IMG/VR virus record: IMGVR_UViG_3300044623_000338
Origin: an uncultured virus (IMG/VR IMGVR_UViG_3300044623_000338)
Taxonomy: Duplodnaviria; Heunggongvirae; Uroviricota; Caudoviricetes
Reading direction: 5' to 3' (one strand)
Length of the DNA stretch: 64,000 bases
Made by a program: the position numbers and the translations under genes. The stretch's first letter is position 1; every line of letters begins with the position of its first letter. The notes beneath the pieces were generated by a model. It was not told the origin of the DNA. It saw only the letters and a list, made by a program, of their open reading frames with translations, and searched no databases. This document shows, in pieces, positions 2,784 through 29,322 of this stretch.

Positions 2784-2966
2784 GTTCTTATCCTGTTGTG
2801 TGTTATAGGTTGGGTTGGGTGTAGTAGCATGCAAATGGAATCATACACTTATTGCTTGTAAAAGGTATTCACACCTACTACCTCGGGTGTTGTTGACACA
2901 GCCCACACTCCGATATACGGCTGTCTGGGGAATAGCTTGCGCTCCCTCCCAGCTAGGGTCATTTAA

Positions 2967-3092
2967 TCACTTCTTTAAGGCAAGCATCTGCTGATACGTG
3001 CCTGTTGCTATTATACGATAACTATTCCTTACATCTGTCCCTTTACATACAATTACATTACCGTGGTTGTTTATCTGTGCTGAATAAATCAT
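2967..3092 (-). CDS. Small hypothetical protein (41 aa)
   Basis: Read manually: MIYSAQINNHGNVIVCKG...LALKK; ATGA overlap with the upstream gene. Confidence 0.55.
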   Translation of the reverse strand: MIYSAQINNHGNVIVCKGTDVRNSYRIIATGTYQQMLALKK

Positions 3093-3694
3093 GCTAGTTC
3101 TCCATCTTCATTGAAGTCTTGGTAATCCACGCTATCTAAAAAACAATCTAATGACTGCATATACTCATACTCCTTCTCCAAATCACGGTATATCTCTTTC
3201 ATGTACTCACGACATTGCCACTCAATGTCAGCCTCGGCATCTATAATTAGCCGCTCATAGTCCTCACCATCTTCTGTGTCATACTCAGGTAGTATGTTCA
3301 AGTCCCAAGACCCTAGATGTACTGATTTCTCGTGACTATAGTTAGTAGACCCATGTCTTGTAAGTTCCAGATCGTAGTATTCACAAGCCGCACCTCTTGT
3401 ATCAAACGGTATTACAGCCATATATAACTTGGCGTGTTCTTTCTTTAGATCAGGGTGTGCCTCAAGAAACTCCCTAAGGTTTATAGACCCAGTGAAACAT
3501 GCACCATCGCCTTGACTACCAAAGCCTGAGAAGTGCATCTTGTTTGTGTCTGTGTATATACCCAGACCCTCTAACTTCTCTGCCCAATACTCCATTATTG
3601 ATTCCCACCAGTAGTAATCATTTGATTGTGCATATTCTACGTGCCGTTTAAAGGCATGTTCTTTTGCTGTGTCGCTTAGTTCTTTATATTGCAT
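3089..3694 (-). CDS. Acidic early protein with FSGFGSQGDGACF motif
   Basis: Start MQYKELSD with CAGGAG RBS; very D/E/Y-rich. Confidence 0.75.
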   Translation of the reverse strand: MQYKELSDTAKEHAFKRHVEYAQSNDYYWWESIMEYWAEKLEGLGIYTDTNKMHFSGFGSQGDGACFTGSINLREFLEAHPDLKKEHAKLYMAVIPFDTRGAACEYYDLELTRHGSTNYSHEKSVHLGSWDLNILPEYDTEDGEDYERLIIDAEADIEWQCREYMKEIYRDLEKEYEYMQSLDCFLDSVDYQDFNEDGELA

Positions 3695-4100
3695 GATCTT
3701 CTCCTGTAGTATCACATACTACGCTTTCATCTTCTTCCATCTCCTCAAGTTCTGGCTCAATAATGAACCACGCATAGCATGAGTATTCTTCTTGCTCTTC
3801 TTCTGTTACTGGTATGTCTAAGCGTGGGTCAAATATGTCCTGCATAGTGCCTTCTTGCTCTGCATCTTGAAATAGTAACTCTACTGCATCTTGATATAAA
3901 CCCCACTCGTGGTCTGTTTTAAATAGGTTATAGGTCAAGTGGTCGGTGTTCTGCCAATCTAACATACCATCTTTCAGGTCTTGGTATGTGGTGTTACCAT
4001 CTGCATATATACAGAATGAGTATTGATGTCCTCCAAAGTAATCAGGGCAACAAGTTGCCGCATGGTCTATACTCATACTAACTATTTTCTCTTTACTCAT
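3684..4100 (-). CDS. Highly acidic hypothetical early protein
   Basis: First gene behind promoter cassette 3; D/E-rich. Confidence 0.75.
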   Translation of the reverse strand: MSKEKIVSMSIDHAATCCPDYFGGHQYSFCIYADGNTTYQDLKDGMLDWQNTDHLTYNLFKTDHEWGLYQDAVELLFQDAEQEGTMQDIFDPRLDIPVTEEEQEEYSCYAWFIIEPELEEMEEDESVVCDTTGEDHAI

Positions 4101-6979: not shown

Positions 6980-7062
6980 CTAAGTTAGAAGGGTTCTAAC
7001 TTAGGTATAACGCCTTTTGCTAGAAGGTGGTACATTGTCGCATACTTGTCCGCCATTGTCAA
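6980..7062 (-). promoter_or_regulatory. Early promoter plus CTAAGTTAG palindrome
   Basis: TTGACA (7062-7057), 17 nt, TGc-GACAAT (7039-7034); CTAAGTTAG-N7-CTAACTTAG at 6980-7004. Confidence 0.75.
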
Positions 7063-7303
7063 CTAACGTCCAACCTCAGTGGAACAGGATTCCGCCAGCC
7101 CTTGTTATCCGTGGGCTAACGTCTAGGCTGAGGGTACGGTGGGTGGAGCCCCCCTTCTACGTTTGGAGTCCCGTACTGCGCTAATACTGTGTTACACACA
7201 AACAATTAGTAGAATTTTCAAAAACCCAAACCCCACCCACCCCTTACCCTATAAGGCCCCCAAGCCTTTCAAAACAAAAACCCATAAAAATTTTTATAAA
7301 AAT

Positions 7304-7412
7304 TTGACCTTTTCCCCTTTTTTTGATAAACTGCGGGCAGTTTATCAAATCTCCAAATTCCCCCAAGCCCCACCAAAATACCTTGACACCCCCGTAAAAA
7401 AGATGCTAGTCT
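7304..7412 (+). promoter_or_regulatory. Two tandem promoters for the packaging/structural arm
   Basis: TTGACC (7304), 17 nt, TGa-TAAACT (7327); TTGACA (7383), 18 nt, TGc-TAGTCT (7407). Confidence 0.65.
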
Positions 7413-7454
7413 AGAGGGTATCTGAACTTTTAGTTCTGCGAATAACGGTAAATT

Positions 7455-8033
7455 ATGGATTCTGACTTAGACTTAGTACTAGAATTAGAGGCCCTCTTAG
7501 CTCCTTCAGAGAGGGATACAGCCAGTGCATACCTACAGGCACGAGAGGTGTTTGCTGATAGAAGCTTTTTATTGAATAATGGGGTTGCACACGCAGACCT
7601 CCCTCCCGAATACACCCACCAAGAAAAGACCGAGGCCCTGAGTATCTTTTTAGAACAACCAGACGCCCCACTTGCACCTACCACTTCTGGCGCCGCCAAG
7701 GCCCTTGAGAAGCTTTTAAAAAAGTTTGACTACAATCTCCCCAATGCCACAAACAAAATGCGTCAGTACCTCATTTTTAAGATGTTTGAGCTGGCAGAAA
7801 GTGAAGACCCTAAGTTAGCCATAAAAGCCCTTGAGATGCTAGGTAAGGTGTCAGAGATTGGGTTGTTCAGTACCAAGATAGAAGTGACTACAACAGACAA
7901 ACCTACCAACGAGCTGGAAACAGAACTAACATCTCTATTAGCCACATATTCTCTAGGGGATTTAGCAGGGGTAAAAGAGGTGCGGGATACTCGGGTGGAG
8001 TTAACTGACGAAGAGTTGCGAGGTGGGCGCTAA
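7455..8033 (+). CDS. terS: Probable terminase small subunit
   Basis: Directly upstream of terL with TAATG coupling; helical ALEMLGKVSEIGLF motif; call is mostly positional. Confidence 0.6.
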   Translation: MDSDLDLVLELEALLAPSERDTASAYLQAREVFADRSFLLNNGVAHADLPPEYTHQEKTEALSIFLEQPDAPLAPTTSGAAKALEKLLKKFDYNLPNATNKMRQYLIFKMFELAESEDPKLAIKALEMLGKVSEIGLFSTKIEVTTTDKPTNELETELTSLLATYSLGDLAGVKEVRDTRVELTDEELRGGR

Positions 8034-10522
8034 TGGAGGAGATGAAGAAAAGACTTGCCACCCTGCCAGAATCAGATCGGATACACTTAGCGCAACTAAT
8101 AAAAGAATTAAAGAAACGCAAGTCTAGAGAGGAAGCACAAGGTAGCTTCTTATCGTTTGTGCAGGAAGTGTGGCCCGGCTTTATTTATGGGAGGCACCAT
8201 GCACGTATGGCAAAAGAGTTCGAGAGGGTGGCTAATGGCGAGTGTAAGCGACTTATTATTAACTTAGGGCCTCGGCATACCAAGAGTGAGTTTTCGTCTT
8301 ATCTGTTACCTGCTTGGTTCTTAGGGCGCTTTCCAGAGAAGAAGGTCATCCAGTGTTCGCATACTGCAGAACTTGCGGTGGGTTTTGGACGTAAAGTGAG
8401 GAACTTAGTTGGGTCGGATGAATACCAGTCCATATTTCCGGGTGTAGGGCTACAGACTGACTCAAAGGCAGCTGGACGATGGAACACAAGCTCAGGAGGT
8501 GACTATTTCGCTATTGGTATTAACGGAGCGGTTACGGGTAAAGGTGCTGACCTACTGATAATTGATGATCCTCATAGTGAAGGCGATGCTGTTATAGCTC
8601 AGTACAACCCTGAAGTGTACGACAAGGTGTTTAGTTGGTATTCATCTGGACCTCGGCAACGTCTACAACCGGGTGGGGCGATCATAATAGTTATGACTCG
8701 CTGGAGTCTTAGGGACTTAACAGGGCAGATATTAGAGTCCGCTGCTATGGGTGGGGATAAATGGGACGTTATTGAGTTTCCTGCTATTTTGCCTAGTGGC
8801 AACCCGCTTTGGCCTGAGTTTTGGCCTCTTGAAGAGTTAATGGCGGTAAAGGCCGAGATACCCAGTGGCAAATGGCAAGCACAGTACCAGCAACAACCCA
8901 CATCTGACTCAACGGCGATAGTTAAGAGAGAGTGGTGGCAGAAGTGGGAGGAGAAGAAACCTCCGAAATGCGACTTCTTGTTGATGTCAATGGATACTGC
9001 GTTCGAGAAGAAGACCAGTGCTGACTACAGTGCGATAGTGATATTTGGAGTTTGGAGCAATCCGGAGGATGGAGACCAGCCGAACTTAATACTTTTAGAG
9101 GCTTGGCGAGAGCGACTAGAGTTTCCAGAGCTAAAGGCTAAAACATTAGAGTTTTACAAGGAGTGGGAGCCTGACGGTGTTATTATTGAGAAGAAGGCAT
9201 CAGGTGCGCCTCTGATATATGAGTTAAGGCGTATGGGCATACCCGTACAAGAGTTTACACCGTCACGTGGACAAGATAAGATATCACGACTTAATGCTGT
9301 GTCTGATATGTTTGCTTCTGGTAAAGTATGGGCTCCGTCTACTCGCTGGGCTGAAGAAGTGATAGATGAGGTTGCGTCCTTCCCTTCTGGTAGGAATGAT
9401 GATTTTGTTGATGCTTGTTTTGTAAAAGGTACTTTAATTCTCATGCAAGACGGAACAGAAAAACCCATAGAAGAAGTTAAAATAGGGGAATATGTTATTA
9501 CCCCTAAAGGGCCTAAGTGTGTATTAGAGGCTTCTTGCACAGGGTATAAACAGACATATAGCGTTGCGGGGTTAGTGGGCTCTGCAGAGCATCCGGTATT
9601 TACTCTTCGTGGGTGGATACCTTTACTTTGGCTACAGAAAGATGATATAATATTGTCTTTAATAACAAGTAAAGGTGACGTATGTGTAAACGAGAAGATA
9701 GAATCACGGTTAGGTTTAATGGGTTTTTGTACCAAAAGTATAGTGATAGGCCTTATTATGAACGTGTTGGGGGACATTACTTTTTACATAGGGATACGTG
9801 GATTTACTATAAGGGAGAGATTCCAGAGGGGTATCATATACACCACAAAGATGAAAACACTAGTAATAACACTATCGAAAACCTTGAAATGCTTACTGCT
9901 GAAGATCATAGAGAACTACATAAAGAGGCCCTTATTAAGCGTAGTACATCACCTGAGCATTTTGAGCACTTGGCTAAAATTAGGCCTCTTACAGTTGAAT
10001 GGCATGGGTCTAAAGAAGGGAAAGAATGGCATAAAGCTCACGCCCTTAAAACAATCCATGCGCCTAATAGCCCAAAACCTTTTAGTAAAATTATCCCAGT
10101 GGATAAAGTGTGTGGCGTTTGTCAGCGAGTATTTATATCCAAAAATCCTAAGCGACAAAATACATGCTCTCAAGAATGCCATAATGTTAAACATAATGAA
10201 AAACGGACACTCAGAAGAAAGGAAAACGCCCCTGAGAGAAGTTGCCAGCATTGTACTAAACCATATACGTCTGTGTATAAAAAACAAAGGTTCTGTTGTA
10301 CCCAGTGTAAGCAGGCTAGTGCAAATGCCCGTACCGCAGCAGATAGAAAAAGTATACAATCTAACTGTTGAAGATACCCCTATGTACTATGCTAACGGGG
10401 TTTTAGTGCACAACTGCACACTTGCACTTGCTAGATTTCGTTCTGGAGGGTTCATCGGTTCCGCTAAAGACAGTATTGACGAAGACAACTGGATGTATAA
10501 GAAACGTGCTAACTATTACTAA
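8033..10522 (+). CDS. terL: Terminase large subunit (496-aa extein) interrupted by an intein
   Basis: Walker A-like PRHTKSE, Walker B LLIIDDP, RNase-H nuclease motifs MDTA, IEKKASG and NDDFVDA|C. Confidence 0.95.
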   Translation: MEEMKKRLATLPESDRIHLAQLIKELKKRKSREEAQGSFLSFVQEVWPGFIYGRHHARMAKEFERVANGECKRLIINLGPRHTKSEFSSYLLPAWFLGRFPEKKVIQCSHTAELAVGFGRKVRNLVGSDEYQSIFPGVGLQTDSKAAGRWNTSSGGDYFAIGINGAVTGKGADLLIIDDPHSEGDAVIAQYNPEVYDKVFSWYSSGPRQRLQPGGAIIIVMTRWSLRDLTGQILESAAMGGDKWDVIEFPAILPSGNPLWPEFWPLEELMAVKAEIPSGKWQAQYQQQPTSDSTAIVKREWWQKWEEKKPPKCDFLLMSMDTAFEKKTSADYSAIVIFGVWSNPEDGDQPNLILLEAWRERLEFPELKAKTLEFYKEWEPDGVIIEKKASGAPLIYELRRMGIPVQEFTPSRGQDKISRLNAVSDMFASGKVWAPSTRWAEEVIDEVASFPSGRNDDFVDACFVKGTLILMQDGTEKPIEEVKIGEYVITPKGPKCVLEASCTGYKQTYSVAGLVGSAEHPVFTLRGWIPLLWLQKDDIILSLITSKGDVCVNEKIESRLGLMGFCTKSIVIGLIMNVLGDITFYIGIRGFTIRERFQRGIIYTTKMKTLVITLSKTLKCLLLKIIENYIKRPLLSVVHHLSILSTWLKLGLLQLNGMGLKKGKNGIKLTPLKQSMRLIAQNLLVKLSQWIKCVAFVSEYLYPKILSDKIHALKNAIMLNIMKNGHSEERKTPLREVASIVLNHIRLCIKNKGSVVPSVSRLVQMPVPQQIEKVYNLTVEDTPMYYANGVLVHNCTLALARFRSGGFIGSAKDSIDEDNWMYKKRANYY
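9622..9681 (+). promoter_or_regulatory. Internal promoter and RBS inside the intein coding sequence
   Basis: TTTACT (9622-27), 18 nt, extended -10 TGa-TATAAT (9646-51); SD AAGGTGA (9672-78) before ATG 9682. Confidence 0.65.
9682..10371 (+). CDS. HNH homing endonuclease with two Cys4 zinc fingers, nested in an alternative frame of the intein
   Basis: LHRDTW...GEIPEGYHIHHKDENTSNNTIENLEML...H (HNH core); CGVC..CSQEC and CQHC..CCTQC; own RBS. Confidence 0.9.
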   Translation: MCKREDRITVRFNGFLYQKYSDRPYYERVGGHYFLHRDTWIYYKGEIPEGYHIHHKDENTSNNTIENLEMLTAEDHRELHKEALIKRSTSPEHFEHLAKIRPLTVEWHGSKEGKEWHKAHALKTIHAPNSPKPFSKIIPVDKVCGVCQRVFISKNPKRQNTCSQECHNVKHNEKRTLRRKENAPERSCQHCTKPYTSVYKKQRFCCTQCKQASANARTAADRKSIQSNC

Positions 10523-10549
10523 CAAACAAATAACTTAAAGGATCGGCCC

Positions 10550-13054
10550 ATGTCTGCAGTCCCAAACAACATTTTTAAAGCTATGCAACCCCAGAGTCCG
10601 TTTTTAGCGGAAGATGATGACGCTCCTGTAGAGATTAATATAGGTGATCCAACAGCCCCTGTTGATACTGAAGTTGAAGTAGAGATGGAACAAGAGCCGG
10701 GGTTTGATGCAAACCTTGCAGAGTACATGGATGAGTCAGATATGACAGCGTTGGTCTCTGATTTGCTAGATGACTTTGAAAATGACAAGAACGCCCGAAA
10801 AGACTGGGAAACTACCTACATAGATGGGTTAGATTTACTCGGTTTAAAGATTGAAGAACGCTCTGAACCTTGGCAAGGTGCCTGTGGTGTATACCACCCC
10901 ATGCTAACAGAAGCGGCGATACGTTTTCAATCAGAGATGATCTCCGAGACATTTCCGGCACAAGGACCTGTAAAAGCCAAGATAATTGGTAAAGACGACC
11001 CTGATACTCAGAAAGCGGCTAAACGTGTTGTAGAAGACATGAATTACCAGTTAACTGAGAAGATGGTAGAGTTTAGACCTGAACACGAGAAAATGTTGTG
11101 GTCACTAGCTTTAGCAGGTGCTTCCTTTAAGAAAGTGTATTTTGACCCTTCTATGAACCGTCAGGTAAGTATGTTTGTACCTGCAGAAGACCTTTATATC
11201 CCCTACGGTGCATCAGATGCACGTACAGCAGAGCGCCTCACCCATGTGATGCGTAAGACCAAGAACGACATTAAGAAGCTACAATACGCTGAGTTCTACA
11301 GAGATGTAGACTTAGGCGAACCATCTAAAGACCTAGACGATGTGCAACAGCGCAAAGATGAGTCTAGTGGTTACAAAGCAACTTATGACAACCGTTACAA
11401 ACTTTTAGAGATGCAGGTTGAGTTAGACCTAGCTGGCTTTGAAGACATGGATGACGAGACTGAAGAAGAGACGGGCATAGCCCTGCCGTACATCGTTACT
11501 ATTGAGAGCAGTACTCAAGAGATTCTTTCTATTAGACGCAACTGGGATGAACATGACCCTCTTAAACAAGCTAAGCAACACTTTGTACAGTATACTTATA
11601 TCCCCGGTTTCGGAGCTTATGGCTATGGGCTTATTCACCTTATTGGTGGCTTTGCTAAGTCTGCGACTTCTATAGTAAGACAGTTAATTGATGCGGGGAC
11701 TTTATCTAATTTACCCGGTGGTCTGAAGTCTAGAGGTCTTAGGATTAAAGGTGACGACACACCCATTATGCCCGGTGAGTGGAGAGATGTTGACGTACCA
11801 TCTGCTAACATTAAAGACAATATTCTACCGCTTCCATATAAGGAACCAAGTGCAACTCTTTTCCAACTGCTCCAAAACGTAGTAGAAGAAGGCCGTAGAT
11901 TAGCTGCAGTAGCAGATGTTAAGCTAGAGAATATGAACGGTGAGGCACCAGTAGGCACCACACTGGCTATCCTAGAAAGAACTCTTAAAGTAATGTCAGC
12001 CGTACAAGCTCGTGTTCATGCGTCAATGGAGCAAGAGTTTAAGTTGATTGCAGCGTTGGTAAGAGACTATACAGCTCCTGCTTATGACTACCTACCGGAC
12101 TTTGATGCACCTGCAACAGCTAAGAAAGAAGATTATGATAAAGTTGATATTATCCCAGTCTCTGATCCTAACGCCAGTACTATGGCGCAACGTATTATTC
12201 AGTACCAAGCGGCTATTCAGTTAGCACAACAATCTCCACAGATATACAACCTGCCTGTACTACATCGTCAAATGCTAGAAGTTATGGGTATTAAAGATGC
12301 AGACAAGATTGTTATTGTTGAAGATGACCAAGTACCGACAGACCCTGTCACAGAGAATGTAAATATTCTTAAAGCTAAACCTGTCAAAGCCTTTATAGAA
12401 CAAGACCAAGACGCCCATTTAGCGGTACACCAGAGCATGTTGGACGATCCTAAGATAGCAGCGGCTATGGGACAAAATCCTCAAGCATCAGTGATAAAAC
12501 AAGCGTTAATGGCTCATATTATGGAACACGTTGGCTTCCAATATCGCCGTGGTATAGAGACTCAGTTAGGTACTACTCTTCCTCCAGAAGATGCTAAGTT
12601 AAGTCCAGAGATGGAGATACAACTAGCTAAGCTATCTGCTGACGCTGCTAAACAATTAATACAAGCTAACCAAGCTGAGCAAGCTCAAAAAACTGCCCAA
12701 CAGCAAGCGCAAGACCCTGTAGTGATGATGCAGCAAAAAGAACTACAGCTGAAACAACAAGAGCTTAATGATAAGAAAGAGATTGAGCTTAAGAAGATAG
12801 ACGCTAGTAAAGAAATAGCTATGCTAAACAATGAAGCTAAGTTACTGGTTCAAGGCGAAGACGCTAAGGTCCAAGGTTTGTTTAAAGGGTTGGATATGGC
12901 TACTCAACAAATAAACGCACAAAACGCCATGCAAGCTACGCCTCCTGCGGCTCCAATAACACAAGCAGGACCACAGGGAGCACCACCTGCACCAGCGCCT
13001 CAACAACCACCATCTATGCCCCCAGCACCACCACAACCACAACCTATGGGATAA
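10550..13054 (+). CDS. Portal protein
   Basis: Follows terL; 834 aa with PWQGACGVYHPML, GFGAYGYGL and LRIKGDDTPI motifs; Q/P-rich C-terminal barrel-like tail. Confidence 0.85.
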   Translation: MSAVPNNIFKAMQPQSPFLAEDDDAPVEINIGDPTAPVDTEVEVEMEQEPGFDANLAEYMDESDMTALVSDLLDDFENDKNARKDWETTYIDGLDLLGLKIEERSEPWQGACGVYHPMLTEAAIRFQSEMISETFPAQGPVKAKIIGKDDPDTQKAAKRVVEDMNYQLTEKMVEFRPEHEKMLWSLALAGASFKKVYFDPSMNRQVSMFVPAEDLYIPYGASDARTAERLTHVMRKTKNDIKKLQYAEFYRDVDLGEPSKDLDDVQQRKDESSGYKATYDNRYKLLEMQVELDLAGFEDMDDETEEETGIALPYIVTIESSTQEILSIRRNWDEHDPLKQAKQHFVQYTYIPGFGAYGYGLIHLIGGFAKSATSIVRQLIDAGTLSNLPGGLKSRGLRIKGDDTPIMPGEWRDVDVPSANIKDNILPLPYKEPSATLFQLLQNVVEEGRRLAAVADVKLENMNGEAPVGTTLAILERTLKVMSAVQARVHASMEQEFKLIAALVRDYTAPAYDYLPDFDAPATAKKEDYDKVDIIPVSDPNASTMAQRIIQYQAAIQLAQQSPQIYNLPVLHRQMLEVMGIKDADKIVIVEDDQVPTDPVTENVNILKAKPVKAFIEQDQDAHLAVHQSMLDDPKIAAAMGQNPQASVIKQALMAHIMEHVGFQYRRGIETQLGTTLPPEDAKLSPEMEIQLAKLSADAAKQLIQANQAEQAQKTAQQQAQDPVVMMQQKELQLKQQELNDKKEIELKKIDASKEIAMLNNEAKLLVQGEDAKVQGLFKGLDMATQQINAQNAMQATPPAAPITQAGPQGAPPAPAPQQPPSMPPAPPQPQPMG

Positions 13055-13057
13055 CAA

Positions 13058-13243
13058 ATGACAACAGTATTAGACGTACTGCGCAAAGAACTTGAGGATG
13101 AAATAGCCGCTCACACTGATGCCCTCGCAAGAGGGCGGGTAGAAGACTATCCATCCTATAAGCAGTTGGTAGGGACTTTATCGGGTCTGTCCCTAGCACT
13201 TAATAGATTAAAAGACCTGCAGAAATATGAGGACGATAATTGA
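13058..13243 (+). CDS. Small head-cluster protein
   Basis: 61 aa between portal and GroES; DYPSYKQLVGTLSGL. Confidence 0.7.
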   Translation: MTTVLDVLRKELEDEIAAHTDALARGRVEDYPSYKQLVGTLSGLSLALNRLKDLQKYEDDN

Positions 13244-13641
13244 TGAGTACGGAAAACATTGGAAATATAGATACGGAGGCCACTATTGAAAGAGGTGAGA
13301 AACTGGCAGAAAGACTACCTGAGCCAGTAGGTTACAAACTTCTCTTGATTAAGCCTAAAGTAGTAGACAAAACAGCCAGTGGTATTGAGATGCCAGACTC
13401 TTTCAAAAAGAAAGAAGAAGCAGGTGCCGTTGTATGTATGGTCATTAAAGTAGGTCCTATGGCTTACATGGATACAGAAAAGTTCCCTACAGGTCCTTGG
13501 TGCACAGAAGGTGACTTCGTGCTAATTGGTGCTTATAGAGGCAGTCGTTTTTCAGTTGATGGGGAAGAGTTTATTCTTGTTAATGACGATATGATTGAAG
13601 GCACTGTATCTGATCCTAGAGGTATAGGGAGGGTTTACTAA
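13243..13641 (+). CDS. groES: GroES/Cpn10-like co-chaperonin
   Basis: PVGYKLLL...KTASGI...VIKVGP...GDFVL...G....DGEEFILVNDDMI matches the Cpn10 pattern. Confidence 0.85.
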   Translation: MSTENIGNIDTEATIERGEKLAERLPEPVGYKLLLIKPKVVDKTASGIEMPDSFKKKEEAGAVVCMVIKVGPMAYMDTEKFPTGPWCTEGDFVLIGAYRGSRFSVDGEEFILVNDDMIEGTVSDPRGIGRVY

Positions 13642-23632: not shown

Positions 23633-24004
23633 ATGGCAAACCCAAATATAGTTAATGTTACCGTAATTAATGGTAACACCAGTACAACTTCACTGACTAC
23701 AACTGCTGCGACTTCTGTAGCGAGTAATGCGGCTGCAAGCAGCAAGGTCTATAAAATAGACTCTATTGTCGTAGCTAACACATCTGCTTCAGCGGCTAAC
23801 ATCACTATCAACGTGTACAGCGCAGCGGCTCTAGGTGGTACAGCATTTCCAATAGCTTCAGCTATCTCAGTACCAGCGTATGCTTCATTGATCGTAACTG
23901 ACAAGACTACAGCGTTCTATCTGCTTGAAGATAAGTCTATAGGTGCTACTGCTGGTACAGCTACTGCGTTGGTGGTAACAGCTTCTTGGGAAGAAATAAC
24001 ATAA
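23633..24004 (+). CDS. Tail fiber-associated small beta protein
   Basis: MANPNIVNV...IVVAN...ISVPAYASL...YLLE...SWEEI. Confidence 0.7.
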   Translation: MANPNIVNVTVINGNTSTTSLTTTAATSVASNAAASSKVYKIDSIVVANTSASAANITINVYSAAALGGTAFPIASAISVPAYASLIVTDKTTAFYLLEDKSIGATAGTATALVVTASWEEIT

Positions 24005-24014
24005 GGAAACTGAA

Positions 24015-25145
24015 ATGTCGCAAAGATATTTAGCAGGGTTCATACAAGCAGGACTCTTTAACCCTTTGGCTGCCCCTACACCCAGTGCCTATACCTATGA
24101 GCTTTGGACTTGGGGGAATGATGTTTTTGGGCAGTTAGGTCTAGGTAATGTAACTTACTACTCAAGTCCAAAACAAGTAGGTGCATTAACAACTTGGTCT
24201 ACTATTGCAGGTGGGGGCAACCACACTCTAGCAACTAAAACAGACGGCACTCTTTGGTCTTGGGGTCAAAACACCAATGGTCAGTTAGGCTTAGGCAATA
24301 CCACTGTCTATTCAAGCCCAAAACAAGTAGGGGCACTTACAACTTGGCTTAACATAGCAGCTGGGCAGGATCACACCATAGCAACTAAAACAGATGGCAC
24401 CCTGTGGTCATGGGGATTTAATTCTAGCGGTCAGTTAGGCCTAGGCAATACAACTGATCGTTCAAGTCCTGTACAAGTAGGTGCTCTTACAACGTGGTCT
24501 AATATAGCATGTGGGAGCTCTCATAGTATAGCAACTAAAACAAACGGAACTCTGTGGTCTTGGGGTAGAAATAATGCTGGTCAATTAGGTCTAGGCAATG
24601 CAACTAATCGTTCTAGTCCTGTACAAGTAGGCGCATTAACCACTTGGTTAAATATAGCATGTGGAAGGTACCACACCATAGCAACTAAAACAGATGGTAC
24701 ACTCTGGTCTTGGGGGATTAATAATGTTGGACAATTAGGTTTAGGTAACATAACTTACTACTCAAGCCCAAAACAAGTAGGTGCTCTTACAACGTGGTCT
24801 ACTATTGCAGGTGGAGGTAACTTTTCTTTAGCAACTAAAACAAACGGAACTCTGTGGTCTTGGGGCCAAAATACTAGTGGTCAATTAGGTCTAGGCAATG
24901 CAACTAATCGTTCTAGTCCTGTACAGGTGGGCGCACTTACAACTTGGTTAAATATTGCAGGTGGAGGCTTCCACACCATAGCTACTAAAACTGATGGTAC
25001 TCTCTGGTCTTGGGGTTTAAACAGTAGTGGGCAGTTAGGCTTAAATAACACAACTGACTACTCAAGCCCCAAACAAGTTGGTGCTCTTACAACGTGGTCT
25101 AAAGTGGCAGATGGCGATTCTTTCTCAATAGCCCTCAAATATTAG
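24015..25145 (+). CDS. RCC1/BLIP-II repeat beta-propeller protein 1
   Basis: Seven ~50-aa repeats KTDGTLWSWGxNxxGQLGLGN..SSP.QVGALTTW. Confidence 0.9.
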   Translation: MSQRYLAGFIQAGLFNPLAAPTPSAYTYELWTWGNDVFGQLGLGNVTYYSSPKQVGALTTWSTIAGGGNHTLATKTDGTLWSWGQNTNGQLGLGNTTVYSSPKQVGALTTWLNIAAGQDHTIATKTDGTLWSWGFNSSGQLGLGNTTDRSSPVQVGALTTWSNIACGSSHSIATKTNGTLWSWGRNNAGQLGLGNATNRSSPVQVGALTTWLNIACGRYHTIATKTDGTLWSWGINNVGQLGLGNITYYSSPKQVGALTTWSTIAGGGNFSLATKTNGTLWSWGQNTSGQLGLGNATNRSSPVQVGALTTWLNIAGGGFHTIATKTDGTLWSWGLNSSGQLGLNNTTDYSSPKQVGALTTWSKVADGDSFSIALKY

Positions 25146-25154
25146 GAAAATACA

Positions 25155-26303
25155 ATGCCAGTAATTTATCCATACGTACAATATTCAGGCATGTGGACAC
25201 CACAGAGTCAAATGCAAGCCGTAGCTGCGGGAACTTGGACAGGTCTGCCGGGACTTTGGTCTTGGGGGCAGAACAGTAGCGGACAATTAGGACTAGGTGA
25301 TACAGCTAACCGTTCAAGCCCCGTGCAAGTAGGAGCTTCAACTTGGTCTATTATAGCAGGAGGGGGCGAATTTTCTTTAACTACTAAATCTGATGGCACA
25401 CTTTGGTCTTGGGGGTCTAATGCTCAAGGACAGTTAGGTCTAGGAAACACAACCAACTACTCAAGCCCAAAACAAGTAGGCGCACTTACAACTTGGTCTA
25501 AAATATCATGTGGTAGCCAACACAGTACCCTTATTAAAACTGATGGCACTCTCTGGGCGTGGGGGATTAATACTAGTGGGGAATTGGGACTAGGTAACAT
25601 TACTAACTACTCTTCCCCTAAACAAATAGGGGCATTAACAAGTTGGTCTAAAATATCAGTCGGTATTCAACACAATTTAGCCATTAAAACAGATGGTACA
25701 TTATGGGCTTGGGGGAGTAATAATGCTGGACAATTAGGCATAGGGGATACAATTAACCGTTCAAGCCCCGTACAAGTAGGTGCACTTACAACTTGGTCTA
25801 GCGTTGCTTGTGGCACAGGTGGAGCTTTATCCTTTGCTATTAAAACCGATGGCACTCTCTGGTCTTGGGGGCAGAACAATGCTGGGCAGTTAGGGTTAGG
25901 TAATACAATTTATAGGTCCTCACCTAACCAAATTGGTACCCTAACAACTTGGTCTAAGATATCGGGGGGGGTTCAACATGGTTTAGCAATTAAAACAGAC
26001 GGTACGTTATGGTCTTGGGGTAGAAATAATCTAGGTCAATTAGGTCTTGGCAACTTGACTTACTACTCTAGCCCTAAACAAATAGGCGCACTTACAACTT
26101 GGTTGAGTATATCTTGTGGGAGGTATAGTAATATAGTCACCAAAACAGACGGTACTCTTTGGTCTTGGGGTTTTAATAATAGCGGGCAATTAGGGTTAGG
26201 CAATACTACATACGCTTATTCAAGTCCTAAACAAGTGGGATCACTAACTACTTGGTCTAAAATTGCAAGCGGGTATAACTACTCCATAGCCATCCTCTCT
26301 TAA
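25155..26303 (+). CDS. RCC1/BLIP-II repeat beta-propeller protein 2
   Basis: Seven repeats of the same consensus. Confidence 0.9.
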   Translation: MPVIYPYVQYSGMWTPQSQMQAVAAGTWTGLPGLWSWGQNSSGQLGLGDTANRSSPVQVGASTWSIIAGGGEFSLTTKSDGTLWSWGSNAQGQLGLGNTTNYSSPKQVGALTTWSKISCGSQHSTLIKTDGTLWAWGINTSGELGLGNITNYSSPKQIGALTSWSKISVGIQHNLAIKTDGTLWAWGSNNAGQLGIGDTINRSSPVQVGALTTWSSVACGTGGALSFAIKTDGTLWSWGQNNAGQLGLGNTIYRSSPNQIGTLTTWSKISGGVQHGLAIKTDGTLWSWGRNNLGQLGLGNLTYYSSPKQIGALTTWLSISCGRYSNIVTKTDGTLWSWGFNNSGQLGLGNTTYAYSSPKQVGSLTTWSKIASGYNYSIAILS

Positions 26304-28101: not shown

Positions 28102-29322
28102 ATGTCAACTAAGTATCCTGGTGGTGTCATAAAATCCTCACCTGTAGTACCAGCTGGGCCGTATCAAAACAGTTCTGCTTCAGGTGTATGGACAATGGAG
28201 CAAGCGGGATACTGGATAAAACAAGGCAACTGGCCCACTGCTGGGAATTTAGCACCTAATAAACTTTATTCTTGGGGGTATAACGTTTTTGGGATGTTGG
28301 GTCTAGGTAATACAACTGACTTCTCAAGCCCTAAGCAAGTAGGTGCCCTTACTACTTGGTCTAAAATAGCAGGTGCCCAAATATTTTCTCTAGCAACTAA
28401 AACAGATGGCACTCTTTGGTCTTGGGGGTATAATGGTAATGGTCAATTAGGATTAAATAATACCACCAGCTACTCAAGCCCTAAGCAAGTAGGTGCTCTT
28501 ACAACTTGGTCTAAAATAGAAACTCTTAGAGGTCCAGCGGGGGTCTTAGCTACTAAAACAGATGGTACTCTATGGTCTTGGGGGTCTAATGACAGTGGAC
28601 AGTTAGGTTTAGGTACTTCAGGTGCTGGCACTTATAAATCTTCACCAAATCAAGTGGGTGCTCTTACAAATTGGTTAACTATAGCATGTGGAAACAATCA
28701 TAGTATAGCAACTAAAACAGACGGCACTCTCTGGTCTTGGGGAAATAATAATGAAGGACAATTAGGTTTAGGAAATACAACTAACCGCTCCAGCCCTGTA
28801 CAAGTAGGTGCACTTACTACTTGGTTAAACATAGCAGGAGGATTCTACCATTCTATAGCGACTAAAACAGATGGCACCTTATGGTCTTGGGGCTTTAATA
28901 CTCAGGGGCAGTTAGGTCTAGGCAATACAACTAACTACTCAAGCCCCAAACAAGTAGGGGCTCTTACTACTTGGCTTAAAATTGCATGTGCAGAATCATC
29001 TACTCTAGTCATTAAAACAGATGGCACCCTGTGGTCATGGGGGATTAATAGTTTTGGTGGCTTAGGTCTAGGCAATACAACTAACTACTCAAGCCCCAAA
29101 CAAGTAGGTGTACTTACAACTTGGTCTGAAATAAAAGCTAATTACCAATGGGCTTTGGCAACTAAAACAGACGGAACTCTATGGTCTTGGGGAAATAACG
29201 CTAGTGGGCAGTTAGGTTTAGGCAGTATAACTAATCGTTCTAGTCCTGTACAGGTAGGTGCACTTACCACTTGGACCAATGTATCATGTGGTTATCAGTT
29301 CGCCCTAGCTACCCTCTCTTAA
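28102..29322 (+). CDS. RCC1/BLIP-II repeat beta-propeller protein 3
   Basis: Seven repeats; N-terminal KYPGGVI...ASGVWT...GNWP extension. Confidence 0.9.
   Translation: MSTKYPGGVIKSSPVVPAGPYQNSSASGVWTMEQAGYWIKQGNWPTAGNLAPNKLYSWGYNVFGMLGLGNTTDFSSPKQVGALTTWSKIAGAQIFSLATKTDGTLWSWGYNGNGQLGLNNTTSYSSPKQVGALTTWSKIETLRGPAGVLATKTDGTLWSWGSNDSGQLGLGTSGAGTYKSSPNQVGALTNWLTIACGNNHSIATKTDGTLWSWGNNNEGQLGLGNTTNRSSPVQVGALTTWLNIAGGFYHSIATKTDGTLWSWGFNTQGQLGLGNTTNYSSPKQVGALTTWLKIACAESSTLVIKTDGTLWSWGINSFGGLGLGNTTNYSSPKQVGVLTTWSEIKANYQWALATKTDGTLWSWGNNASGQLGLGSITNRSSPVQVGALTTWTNVSCGYQFALATLS

Follow-up and report, generated by a model that had tools for sequence, protein, structure and literature searches.

An intein in a phage terminase gene with an HNH homing endonuclease-like gene in an overlapping reading frame

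An intein that shares its DNA with a nuclease gene in another reading frame was found in the terminase large-subunit gene (terL) of an uncultured virus of the Caudoviricetes (Duplodnaviria; Heunggongvirae; Uroviricota; IMG/VR record IMGVR_UViG_3300044623_000338). The whole stretch of DNA analyzed, 64,000 nucleotides (nt) in length, is referred to here as the window, and coordinates are those of the window. In the reading that we favor, with a probability of roughly 85%, this is a mobile terL intein inserted at DDFVDA/C (the slash marks the junction), the homing endonuclease of which lies outside the intein polypeptide and is encoded by an overlapping gene in the +2 frame. The arrangement is real rather than a product of sequencing error, and the element is probably mobile. 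The following features, given with open reading frames (ORFs) and lengths in amino acids (aa), are used throughout.

8033–10522, plus strand: terL precursor ORF, 829 aa including the intein, stop codon at 10520–10522
8033–9415, plus strand: N-extein, 461 aa, ending in ..GRNDDFVDA at the end of the RNaseH-like nuclease domain
9416–10414, plus strand: intein, 333 aa, with class-1 motifs (Cys1 ... His-Asn, then Cys+1 at 10415)
9416–9681, plus strand: N-terminal splicing region with Cys1 and S56-A57-E58-H59; PF05203, PF14623 and PF13403 match intein residues 1–51/68
9622–9651, plus strand: sigma-70-like promoter match, TTTACT-18-TATAAT with an upstream TG, 10/12 matches
9671–9677, plus strand: Shine-Dalgarno-like AAGGTGA, 4 nt upstream of the ATG at 9682
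9676–9678, plus strand: TGA that closes the HNH frame one codon before the ATG, so that this frame is open only from 9679
9682–10371, plus strand: HNH_3 homing-endonuclease-like gene, 229 aa, +2 frame, with an N-terminal HNH domain and two C-terminal Cys4 fingers
9683–10312, plus strand: host-frame linker, about 210 codons, stop-free, with no family match and no confident fold
10313–10414, plus strand: C-terminal splicing region; PF14890 and PF07591 matches end at residue 333
10415–10519, plus strand: C-extein, 35 aa, starting Cys-Thr where intein-free alleles have Val-Ser or Val-Thr

The precursor ORF is a terminase large subunit (PHROG phrog_38, E value 3.7e-102); its residues 24–461 match terminase large-subunit families, with Pfam Terminase_6C at residues 319–463. 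In their best local alignments, two intein-free TerLs of 496 aa (P0006 and P0007) show 100% and 98% identity to the extein of the window, and the alignment of the precursor with them breaks exactly at the end of the N-extein (9415). Subtraction of the 333-aa intein from the 829-aa precursor gives the same 496 aa as the predicted length of the spliced TerL, and the intein-free proteins read DDFVDA-VS-LALARF or DDFVDG-VS-LALARF, compared with DDFVDA-[intein]-CT-LALARF in the window. The Cys1 codon occupies 9416–9418, S56-A57-E58-H59 forms block B, and the C-terminal end reads ..KVYNLTVED..YANGVLVHN, in which H332-N333 precedes the extein cysteine (HN/C at 10409–10417); the His-Asn end is identical in 10 other intein-bearing TerLs that were aligned. 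A blastn search of phage records with 9300–10520 returned a single match, of 85 nt.

Searches of the intein frame with Pfam returned no endonuclease family, and the Hint/intein models cover its two ends only. PF05203 scores above its cut-off (33.6 bits versus 32.1, residues 1–51), whereas PF14890 (Intein_splicing) reaches 27.0 bits, below the curated cut-off of 35.8, because its match is stretched across the 210-codon linker. A phmmer search of the intein against PDB chains gave no match at E ≤ 0.05. The same division appears in a structure model of the precursor, built from a shallow alignment of 24 sequences (mean predicted local distance difference test score, pLDDT, 55): residues 461–543 and 761–795 have pLDDT values of 66–82 and 67–75, and the linker at 544–760 has values of 25–37. 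This linker is presumably spliced out together with the intein. The element thus differs from a canonical large intein, in which the endonuclease shares the frame of the splicing domains, and from a split intein or fractured gene, in which two ORFs flank a nuclease gene, since the host gene is a single 829-codon ORF. A group I intron was considered as a separate candidate and rejected: an Rfam scan of 8900–10900 gave no match at E ≤ 1, the host frame is open, and Hint motifs as well as precise intein-free alleles are present.

The nuclease is encoded at an offset from terL of 9682 − 8033 = 1649 = 3k+2, that is, in the +2 frame. Its product matches Pfam HNH_3 (PF13392, E 1.6e-14, 53.7 bits with a cut-off of 24.8, residues 33–76) and the HNH endonuclease family phrog_15471 (E 2e-22). 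Across 32 aligned sequences, H36, H54, H55, N63, N67, H76 and H80 are invariant, as are the finger cysteines C162 and C166, while C144 and C147 are nearly so; an AlphaFold2 model has a mean pLDDT of 91.7. A preliminary description of this locus had placed a 333-aa intein with splicing blocks at DDFVDA/C, an intein frame that lacks an endonuclease but contains no stop, and an HNH nuclease with two Cys4 fingers at 9682–10371 in a different frame. The coordinates and motifs are confirmed, and two of the checks it had suggested, a profile search of both frames and an alignment with intein-less TerLs, locate Hint at the intein ends and HNH_3 in the +2 frame and align P0006 and P0007 across the junction.

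At the +2 offset, a stop in the host frame is possible only where an HNH codon of the form NTA precedes a purine or one of the form NTG precedes A. Across the HNH ORF, the host frame contains 0 stops versus 9.35 expected, and none of 3000 recodings with the codon usage of the window was stop-free; shuffling of the gene's own synonymous codons lowers the expectation to 4.6 stops (P0 = 0.0007). The third reading frame over the same ORF has 45 stops. All six NTA codons of the HNH ORF precede C or T, and no NTG codon precedes A. TTA, CTA, ATA and GTA make up 36, 22, 50 and 46% of the codons for their amino acids in the long ORFs of the window; in the HNH ORF they account for 1/10, 1/10, 3/12 and 1/9. 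The host frame is kept open by stop avoidance. This bears out the earlier observation that NTA codons occur only before pyrimidines and that codon use has shifted away from NTA despite its heavy use in the genome, and the interpretation given to it, namely that the pattern keeps the terminase frame open.

The same layout recurs in other phages. Searching phage records with the HNH protein by tblastn located matches inside annotated terL genes of unrelated phages, each nested at +2, in Tetrasphaera phage TJE1, Acinetobacter phage Highwayman, Rhodobacteraceae phage LS06-2018-MD07 and Clostridium phage phiCDHM19. Viral and metagenome contigs contributed loci L009–L054, which brings the total to 54, and copies with HNH DNA ≥99% identical were collapsed into lineages. 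Fourteen lineages, 15 with the window, carry the gene nested at +2 within a long ORF in which no stop occurs anywhere along the HNH match; they include TJE1, Highwayman, LS06-MD07, phiCDHM19/phiCD119 and nine metagenomic lineages. Hint evidence was obtained by tblastn or Pfam in 13 of the 14 and in none of the searches of L017, and tblastn with the C-terminal region of the window's intein finds a host-frame counterpart in related loci. The nested HNH proteins are 29–37% identical to that of the window, and all 15 copies are full length. Two Pfam types of TerL, Terminase_3/3C and Terminase_6N/6C, serve as their hosts, and the Hint part begins at the end of the nuclease domain wherever a Terminase_3C/6C match was reported (the window and 4 of 12 host ORFs scanned). 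Thirteen lineages are non-nested, comprising free-standing genes, some beside terS/terL (L002, L008), and split or decayed-looking copies (L006, L023, L049), and about four distant lineages (L051–L054) have the HNH motif in frame within long ORFs.

In two further lineages the gene is nested at the alternative offset, so that the host frame is HNH+2. One (L034, 2474–2998) has an HNH_3 gene inside a Terminase_3 terL with an intein; the other (L028/L029/L050, 2704–3354) has an HNH_3 gene in an ORF, 1120 aa in L029, for which Pfam gives no match.

Comparison of the nested lineages separates the two frames. Host-frame stops number 0 in each of the 13 nested lineages tested (P0 ≤ 0.05 for 11 of them) and 7–20 in eight non-nested relatives, counted in the same relative frame. 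The preliminary description had named homologues with stops in the intein frame as a sign of an intron or of frameshifting; all 15 nested lineages are stop-free there. Translations of the HNH frame from the 15 lineages are similar at E < 1e-5 in 105/105 pairs (median 105 bits), whereas host-frame translations of the same DNA reach this level in only 30/105 pairs (median 27 bits). Judged by this cross-lineage comparison, which was used in place of a frame-specific ratio of nonsynonymous to synonymous substitution rates (dN/dS), the HNH frame alone is conserved as protein. The weak echo in the host frame across lineages accounts for the matches of the linker to two PHROG families built on Clostridioides difficile phage proteins.

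One of these proteins illustrates how the layout has been annotated. In phiCD119 (L007, NC_007917, 201–2595), terL is annotated in three pieces (ter1, ter2 and a 232-aa "hypothetical protein"); in phiCDHM19, which is nearly identical, terL is a single ORF of 800 codons. The 232-aa piece consists of the host-frame linker, Hint-C and the C-extein, and it probably seeded phrog_35162.

The similarity between lineages also bears on the proposal that the HNH gene is a silent or decaying passenger, in which case the intein would persist by splicing alone and the open HNH frame would be the remnant of a recent invasion. In favor of this, one relative (L049) has a truncated HNH frame adjoining a Hint-C match. 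In the window, however, the ORF is full length and its model confident, the 32 sequences vary little or not at all at the catalytic His/Asn/His and finger cysteines, and similarity of the HNH frame in every pair, at 29–37% identity to the window, needs long purifying selection. Together with the coexistence of intein-free and intein-bearing alleles described below, these observations make a passenger improbable.

Evidence for mobility comes from lake and freshwater metagenomes, to which the runs that hold the window belong. Seven runs from five studies hold ≥0.97 of the sampled words of 9000–10900 (the source sample may be among them), and 15 runs hold ≥0.55. In two runs (X8 and X12), contigs join position 9414 to 10427 with 13 other letters (CGTGACTCTAGCC), an intein-free allele; the depth at this joint is 9.6 in X8 and 4.3 in X12, compared with 5.7 and 3.8 for the intein contigs of the same runs. 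The empty site reads GCC GTG ACT CTA GCC where the occupied one reads GCT/../TGC ACA CTT GCA, a replacement of Val by Cys plus four synonymous differences within 15 nt. Co-conversion, or a site made immune to cutting, would look like this. Two 837-aa precursors (P0004 and P0005), 81% and 79% identical to that of the window, have N-exteins that are 78% identical to the window's but Hint-N parts that are 94–96% identical, which fits transfer of the intein between diverged terL alleles; stronger constraint on Hint-N is the alternative. The presence/absence polymorphism of the insert also fits the selfish, dual-coded element that the preliminary description had envisaged.

The same runs address whether assembly or sequencing indels could have split a normal in-frame HNH intein into two frames, a possibility raised at the outset. 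Contigs from three further lake DNA runs show 0 differences and no indels relative to the intein (9416–10414). Moreover, an accidental frameshift would not leave about 210 off-frame codons free of stops, nor would it recur in 14 other lineages, and the probability of such an artifact is close to nil. In the exteins (9000–9400 and 10430–10900; runs X8, X10, X12 and X16), the contigs contain many variant letters and diverged relatives, and in the intein none.

By blastn, a single record out of 53 from related Acinetobacter phages contains the insert; of the C. difficile phages, phiCDHM19 and phiCD119 carry it and CD1801 matches the C-extein only. This distribution weighs on the suggestion that the nested protein is a terminase-associated packaging factor instead of a homing nuclease, for which one can cite its location inside terL, the free-standing relatives that adjoin terS/terL, and the partnership of HNH proteins with terminases discussed for Brucella phages (PMC4422536, citing Kala et al. 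2014). The insert is dispensable, given phages with 98–100% identical exteins that lack it and the single Acinetobacter record that has it, and the protein belongs to HNH_3 and has the homing endonuclease I-HmuI as its top, albeit weak, hit in both structural and profile comparisons. We regard a packaging role as very improbable.

Related TerLs have inteins at several other positions. Five TerLs (P0010, P0013, P0014, P0018 and P0081) have inteins at a second site three codons upstream (..HDDY/C-D-x-V-S..), and at both sites the +1 Cys stands where the empty allele has a Val. Members of the same TerL family have inteins at further sites (P0009, P0016–P0020, P0024, P0021, P0037, P0074, P0079 and P0082), in precursors of about 800–811 aa, of 845–850 aa with a LAGLIDADG_3 domain, or of 1117–1195 aa apparently with two inteins. 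This terL looks like a hot spot for inteins.

Independent translation of the HNH gene is well supported by the sequence around its start. The AAGGTGA proposed earlier as its Shine-Dalgarno site is indeed present 4 nt upstream of the ATG, and RNA 9655–9740 folds more weakly than shuffled sequences (z +1.73; 196 of 200 shuffles at least as stable), so the ribosome site looks accessible. Each of the 15 lineages has an ATG or GTG a few codons upstream of the conserved HNH N-terminus, about half of them with a Shine-Dalgarno-like site, and a relative with a 61% identical HNH protein (P0124) starts at the same place as the window. Separate transcription would be a possibility only; the promoter-like match at 9622–9651 is the best of 15 such sites in 7000–13500. 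Contigs from an RNA library (X16) contain the exteins of a diverged intein-free relative, with 15 other letters at the junction and no intein, and are no evidence either way on transcription of the HNH gene. Within the N-terminal region of the intein, a hairpin of 11 pairs with a T-rich run behind it (9595–9621) abuts the −35 element of the promoter-like site; the region contains 5 terminator-like sites versus 5.8 expected, which is no enrichment.

The start region also speaks to production of the nuclease as a fusion, by programmed ribosomal frameshifting from the terL/intein frame, which would make it in effect a domain of the intein. Constancy of the relative frame (−1/+2) in 15 lineages speaks for such a mechanism, but common descent explains it. 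The TGA one codon before the ATG means that the HNH frame of the window is not enterable by a frameshift from upstream, most lineages have an HNH frame that opens only 1–15 codons before the start codon, and a return shift would also be required to reach the C-terminal splicing region. Frameshifting is accordingly an extremely improbable source of the nuclease.

Under the reading of a mobile intein with an independently expressed nuclease, ribosomes translating terL would run through about 210 "echo" codons, which would form an unstructured linker, and the Hint domain would splice out the whole 333-aa insert to yield a 496-aa TerL. The nuclease would be started independently at the ATG at 9682 by means of AAGGTGA, either from the terL message or from the internal promoter at 9622–9651. 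It would then cut intein-free terL alleles of co-infecting relatives, and repair would copy in the intein, the Cys+1 codon and the synonymous changes close to it. The element probably descends from a free-standing HNH gene, like those beside terS/terL of other phages, that settled in a mini-intein; such an invasion fits the free-standing relatives at these positions.

Several observations weigh against this reading. Splicing, nuclease expression, promoter use, cleavage and homing are all inferred from sequence. I-HmuI (1u3e) is the top structural match of the HNH model but a weak one (Foldseek E 0.12, probability 0.96, template modeling score 0.24–0.30), and its profile match is weak as well (E 0.011). 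The low pLDDT of the linker is weak evidence for disorder, given the shallow alignment behind the model. A Shine-Dalgarno-like site is not visible in 6 of the 15 lineages. The preliminary description had assigned the gene a promoter of its own, and the TTTACT-18-TATAAT motif with its TG is present; such sites, however, do not exceed the number in shuffled sequences (15 in 7000–13500 versus 10.8 ± 3.3), and the match is to a consensus that may not be that of the host. DNA relatives of the HNH gene from the viral and metagenome contig scans are at most 39% identical to the window's over most of the protein, pairs of loci are either ≥99.5% or <70% identical in their HNH DNA, too near or too far for lineage dN/dS, blastn with the inteins of the Acinetobacter and C. 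difficile phages returned only records that are identical or lack the intein, and the close relatives P0004 and P0005 are known as proteins alone.

A more speculative idea is that the overlap itself is an adaptation. Indels in the nuclease gene would frameshift the essential terminase, and this would shield the nuclease from its commonest route of decay and allow the element to escape the endonuclease loss of the "homing cycle". We consider this unlikely. If the overlap does protect, it would explain the survival of one relative frame in 15 lineages with divergent HNH proteins, the spread over two TerL families and the full length of all 15 nested copies; the contiguous form and the split form of Vibrio phage 1.238.A (see below) would then be two stable outcomes of the same invasion.

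As a whole, the window is a virulent-type phage genome of lake-water origin. Its products include portal and major head proteins, a DNA polymerase, a primase/helicase and a virion protein of 2372 aa that contains a transglycosylase domain. Three paralogous ORFs of 381–406 aa (24000–25145, 25146–26303 and 28102–29322) match the PHROG annotation "regulator of chromosome condensation" (RCC1-like repeats) and, more weakly, tail proteins. They are probably tail or receptor-binding parts.

The element offers a clean natural case of dual coding: one frame is retained for the protein it specifies, the other solely so that it stays open. Because those lakes also contain an empty allele, the putative homing site is defined to the base. 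The locus would be a convenient system in which to study translation of a nuclease gene nested within a heavily translated late gene, the tolerance of Hint for a linker of about 210 meaningless residues, and whether the overlap slows endonuclease decay. There are consequences for annotation as well, since nested nucleases are systematically missed by gene callers, which list terL only, and records are inconsistent on the layout. The records of TJE1, Highwayman and LS06-MD07 have no HNH feature.

The preliminary description had left to a literature search whether endonucleases in an alternative frame of an intein were already known. They are: the layout is in print and not new as a kind. In Brucella phages, a terL intein with an out-of-frame HNH gene was noted in 2015 (Virol J, PMC4422536). 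In Brucella phage Tb/Pr (Perisivirus; NC_019446, gp07/gp08), terL is annotated "intein present" and a 228-aa HNH gene is nested on the same strand in another frame; the Tb terL ORF has an Intein_splicing match (E 2.6e-15). The Tb element differs from that of the window in its offset of +1 (3170 − 2347 = 823) rather than +2, and in its insertion in the middle of TerL (Pfam Hint/intein at about residues 181–506 of 848) rather than at the end of the nuclease domain. Its nuclease is of the PF01844 type, with N-terminal zinc ribbons and the HNH motif at residues 150–189; similarity to the window's HNH protein is marginal (31.6 bits over 64 residues), and it is absent from the tblastn matches at E ≤ 1e-5.

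Out-of-frame endonucleases in inteins were also described in a survey limited to PhagesDB (bioRxiv 10.1101/2025.01.02.630785). The inteins reported there likewise have terL among their hosts, and invasion by a free-standing nuclease gene is proposed; the out-of-frame nuclease is endonuclease VII-like, and HNH is reported only in frame. A cyanobacterial dnaX intein (Phillips et al., bioRxiv 10.64898/2026.09.14.751524) resembles the window's element more closely in its coding: a +2 ORF with a Shine-Dalgarno-like site lies between the splicing domains, the in-frame reading is disordered in a model, and the +2 frame is under purifying selection. Lake metagenomes contain full, mini and empty alleles side by side. 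It differs in its cellular host, its host gene dnaX and its LAGLIDADG nuclease. The authors credit the idea to Gorbalenya 1998, "Non-canonical inteins".

Split inteins, or "fractured genes" (Dassa et al. 2009, PMC2677866), share the order of Hint-N, a nuclease gene with its own start, and Hint-C, as well as entry of a free-standing nuclease gene into an intein as a model. In the window, by contrast, the host frame is continuous and the intein contiguous, and the nucleases described in that work are GIY-YIG and Vsr-like. A relative of the window's element in Vibrio phage 1.238.A (L006, NC_055735, 161–3889) resembles the split-intein form. Its terL ORF, which has a partial match to Intein_splicing, runs to 3037, the HNH_3 ORF that follows at 2899–3633 is in the same relative frame with 14 host-frame stops across it, and a separate 105-aa ORF at 3572–3889, annotated as a Hint domain protein, lies in the terL frame. 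This terL has an additional LAGLIDADG intein upstream. Phage DNA methylases with the ShiLan domain (Arsenault et al., Genes 2025, PMC11855218) also contain a zinc-finger HNH gene in a third frame with the host frame stop-free, but no splicing domain is detectable there, whereas Hint ends are present in the window. An HNH endonuclease gene nested out of frame is also annotated in APSE-1 (L056, NC_000935, 28827–31808), whose DNA polymerase gene P45 contains it as P46, on the same strand at an offset of +1.

Literature searches found no paper on the family described here, with HNH_3 genes placed at +2 where the TerL nuclease domain ends, in phages of both the Terminase_3 and the Terminase_6 type, although the preprint supplements may list members. 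To these known systems, the window adds a case with exactly defined boundaries, stop avoidance that has been quantified, one relative frame conserved throughout a wide family, an empty allele in the same samples and a possible split relative.

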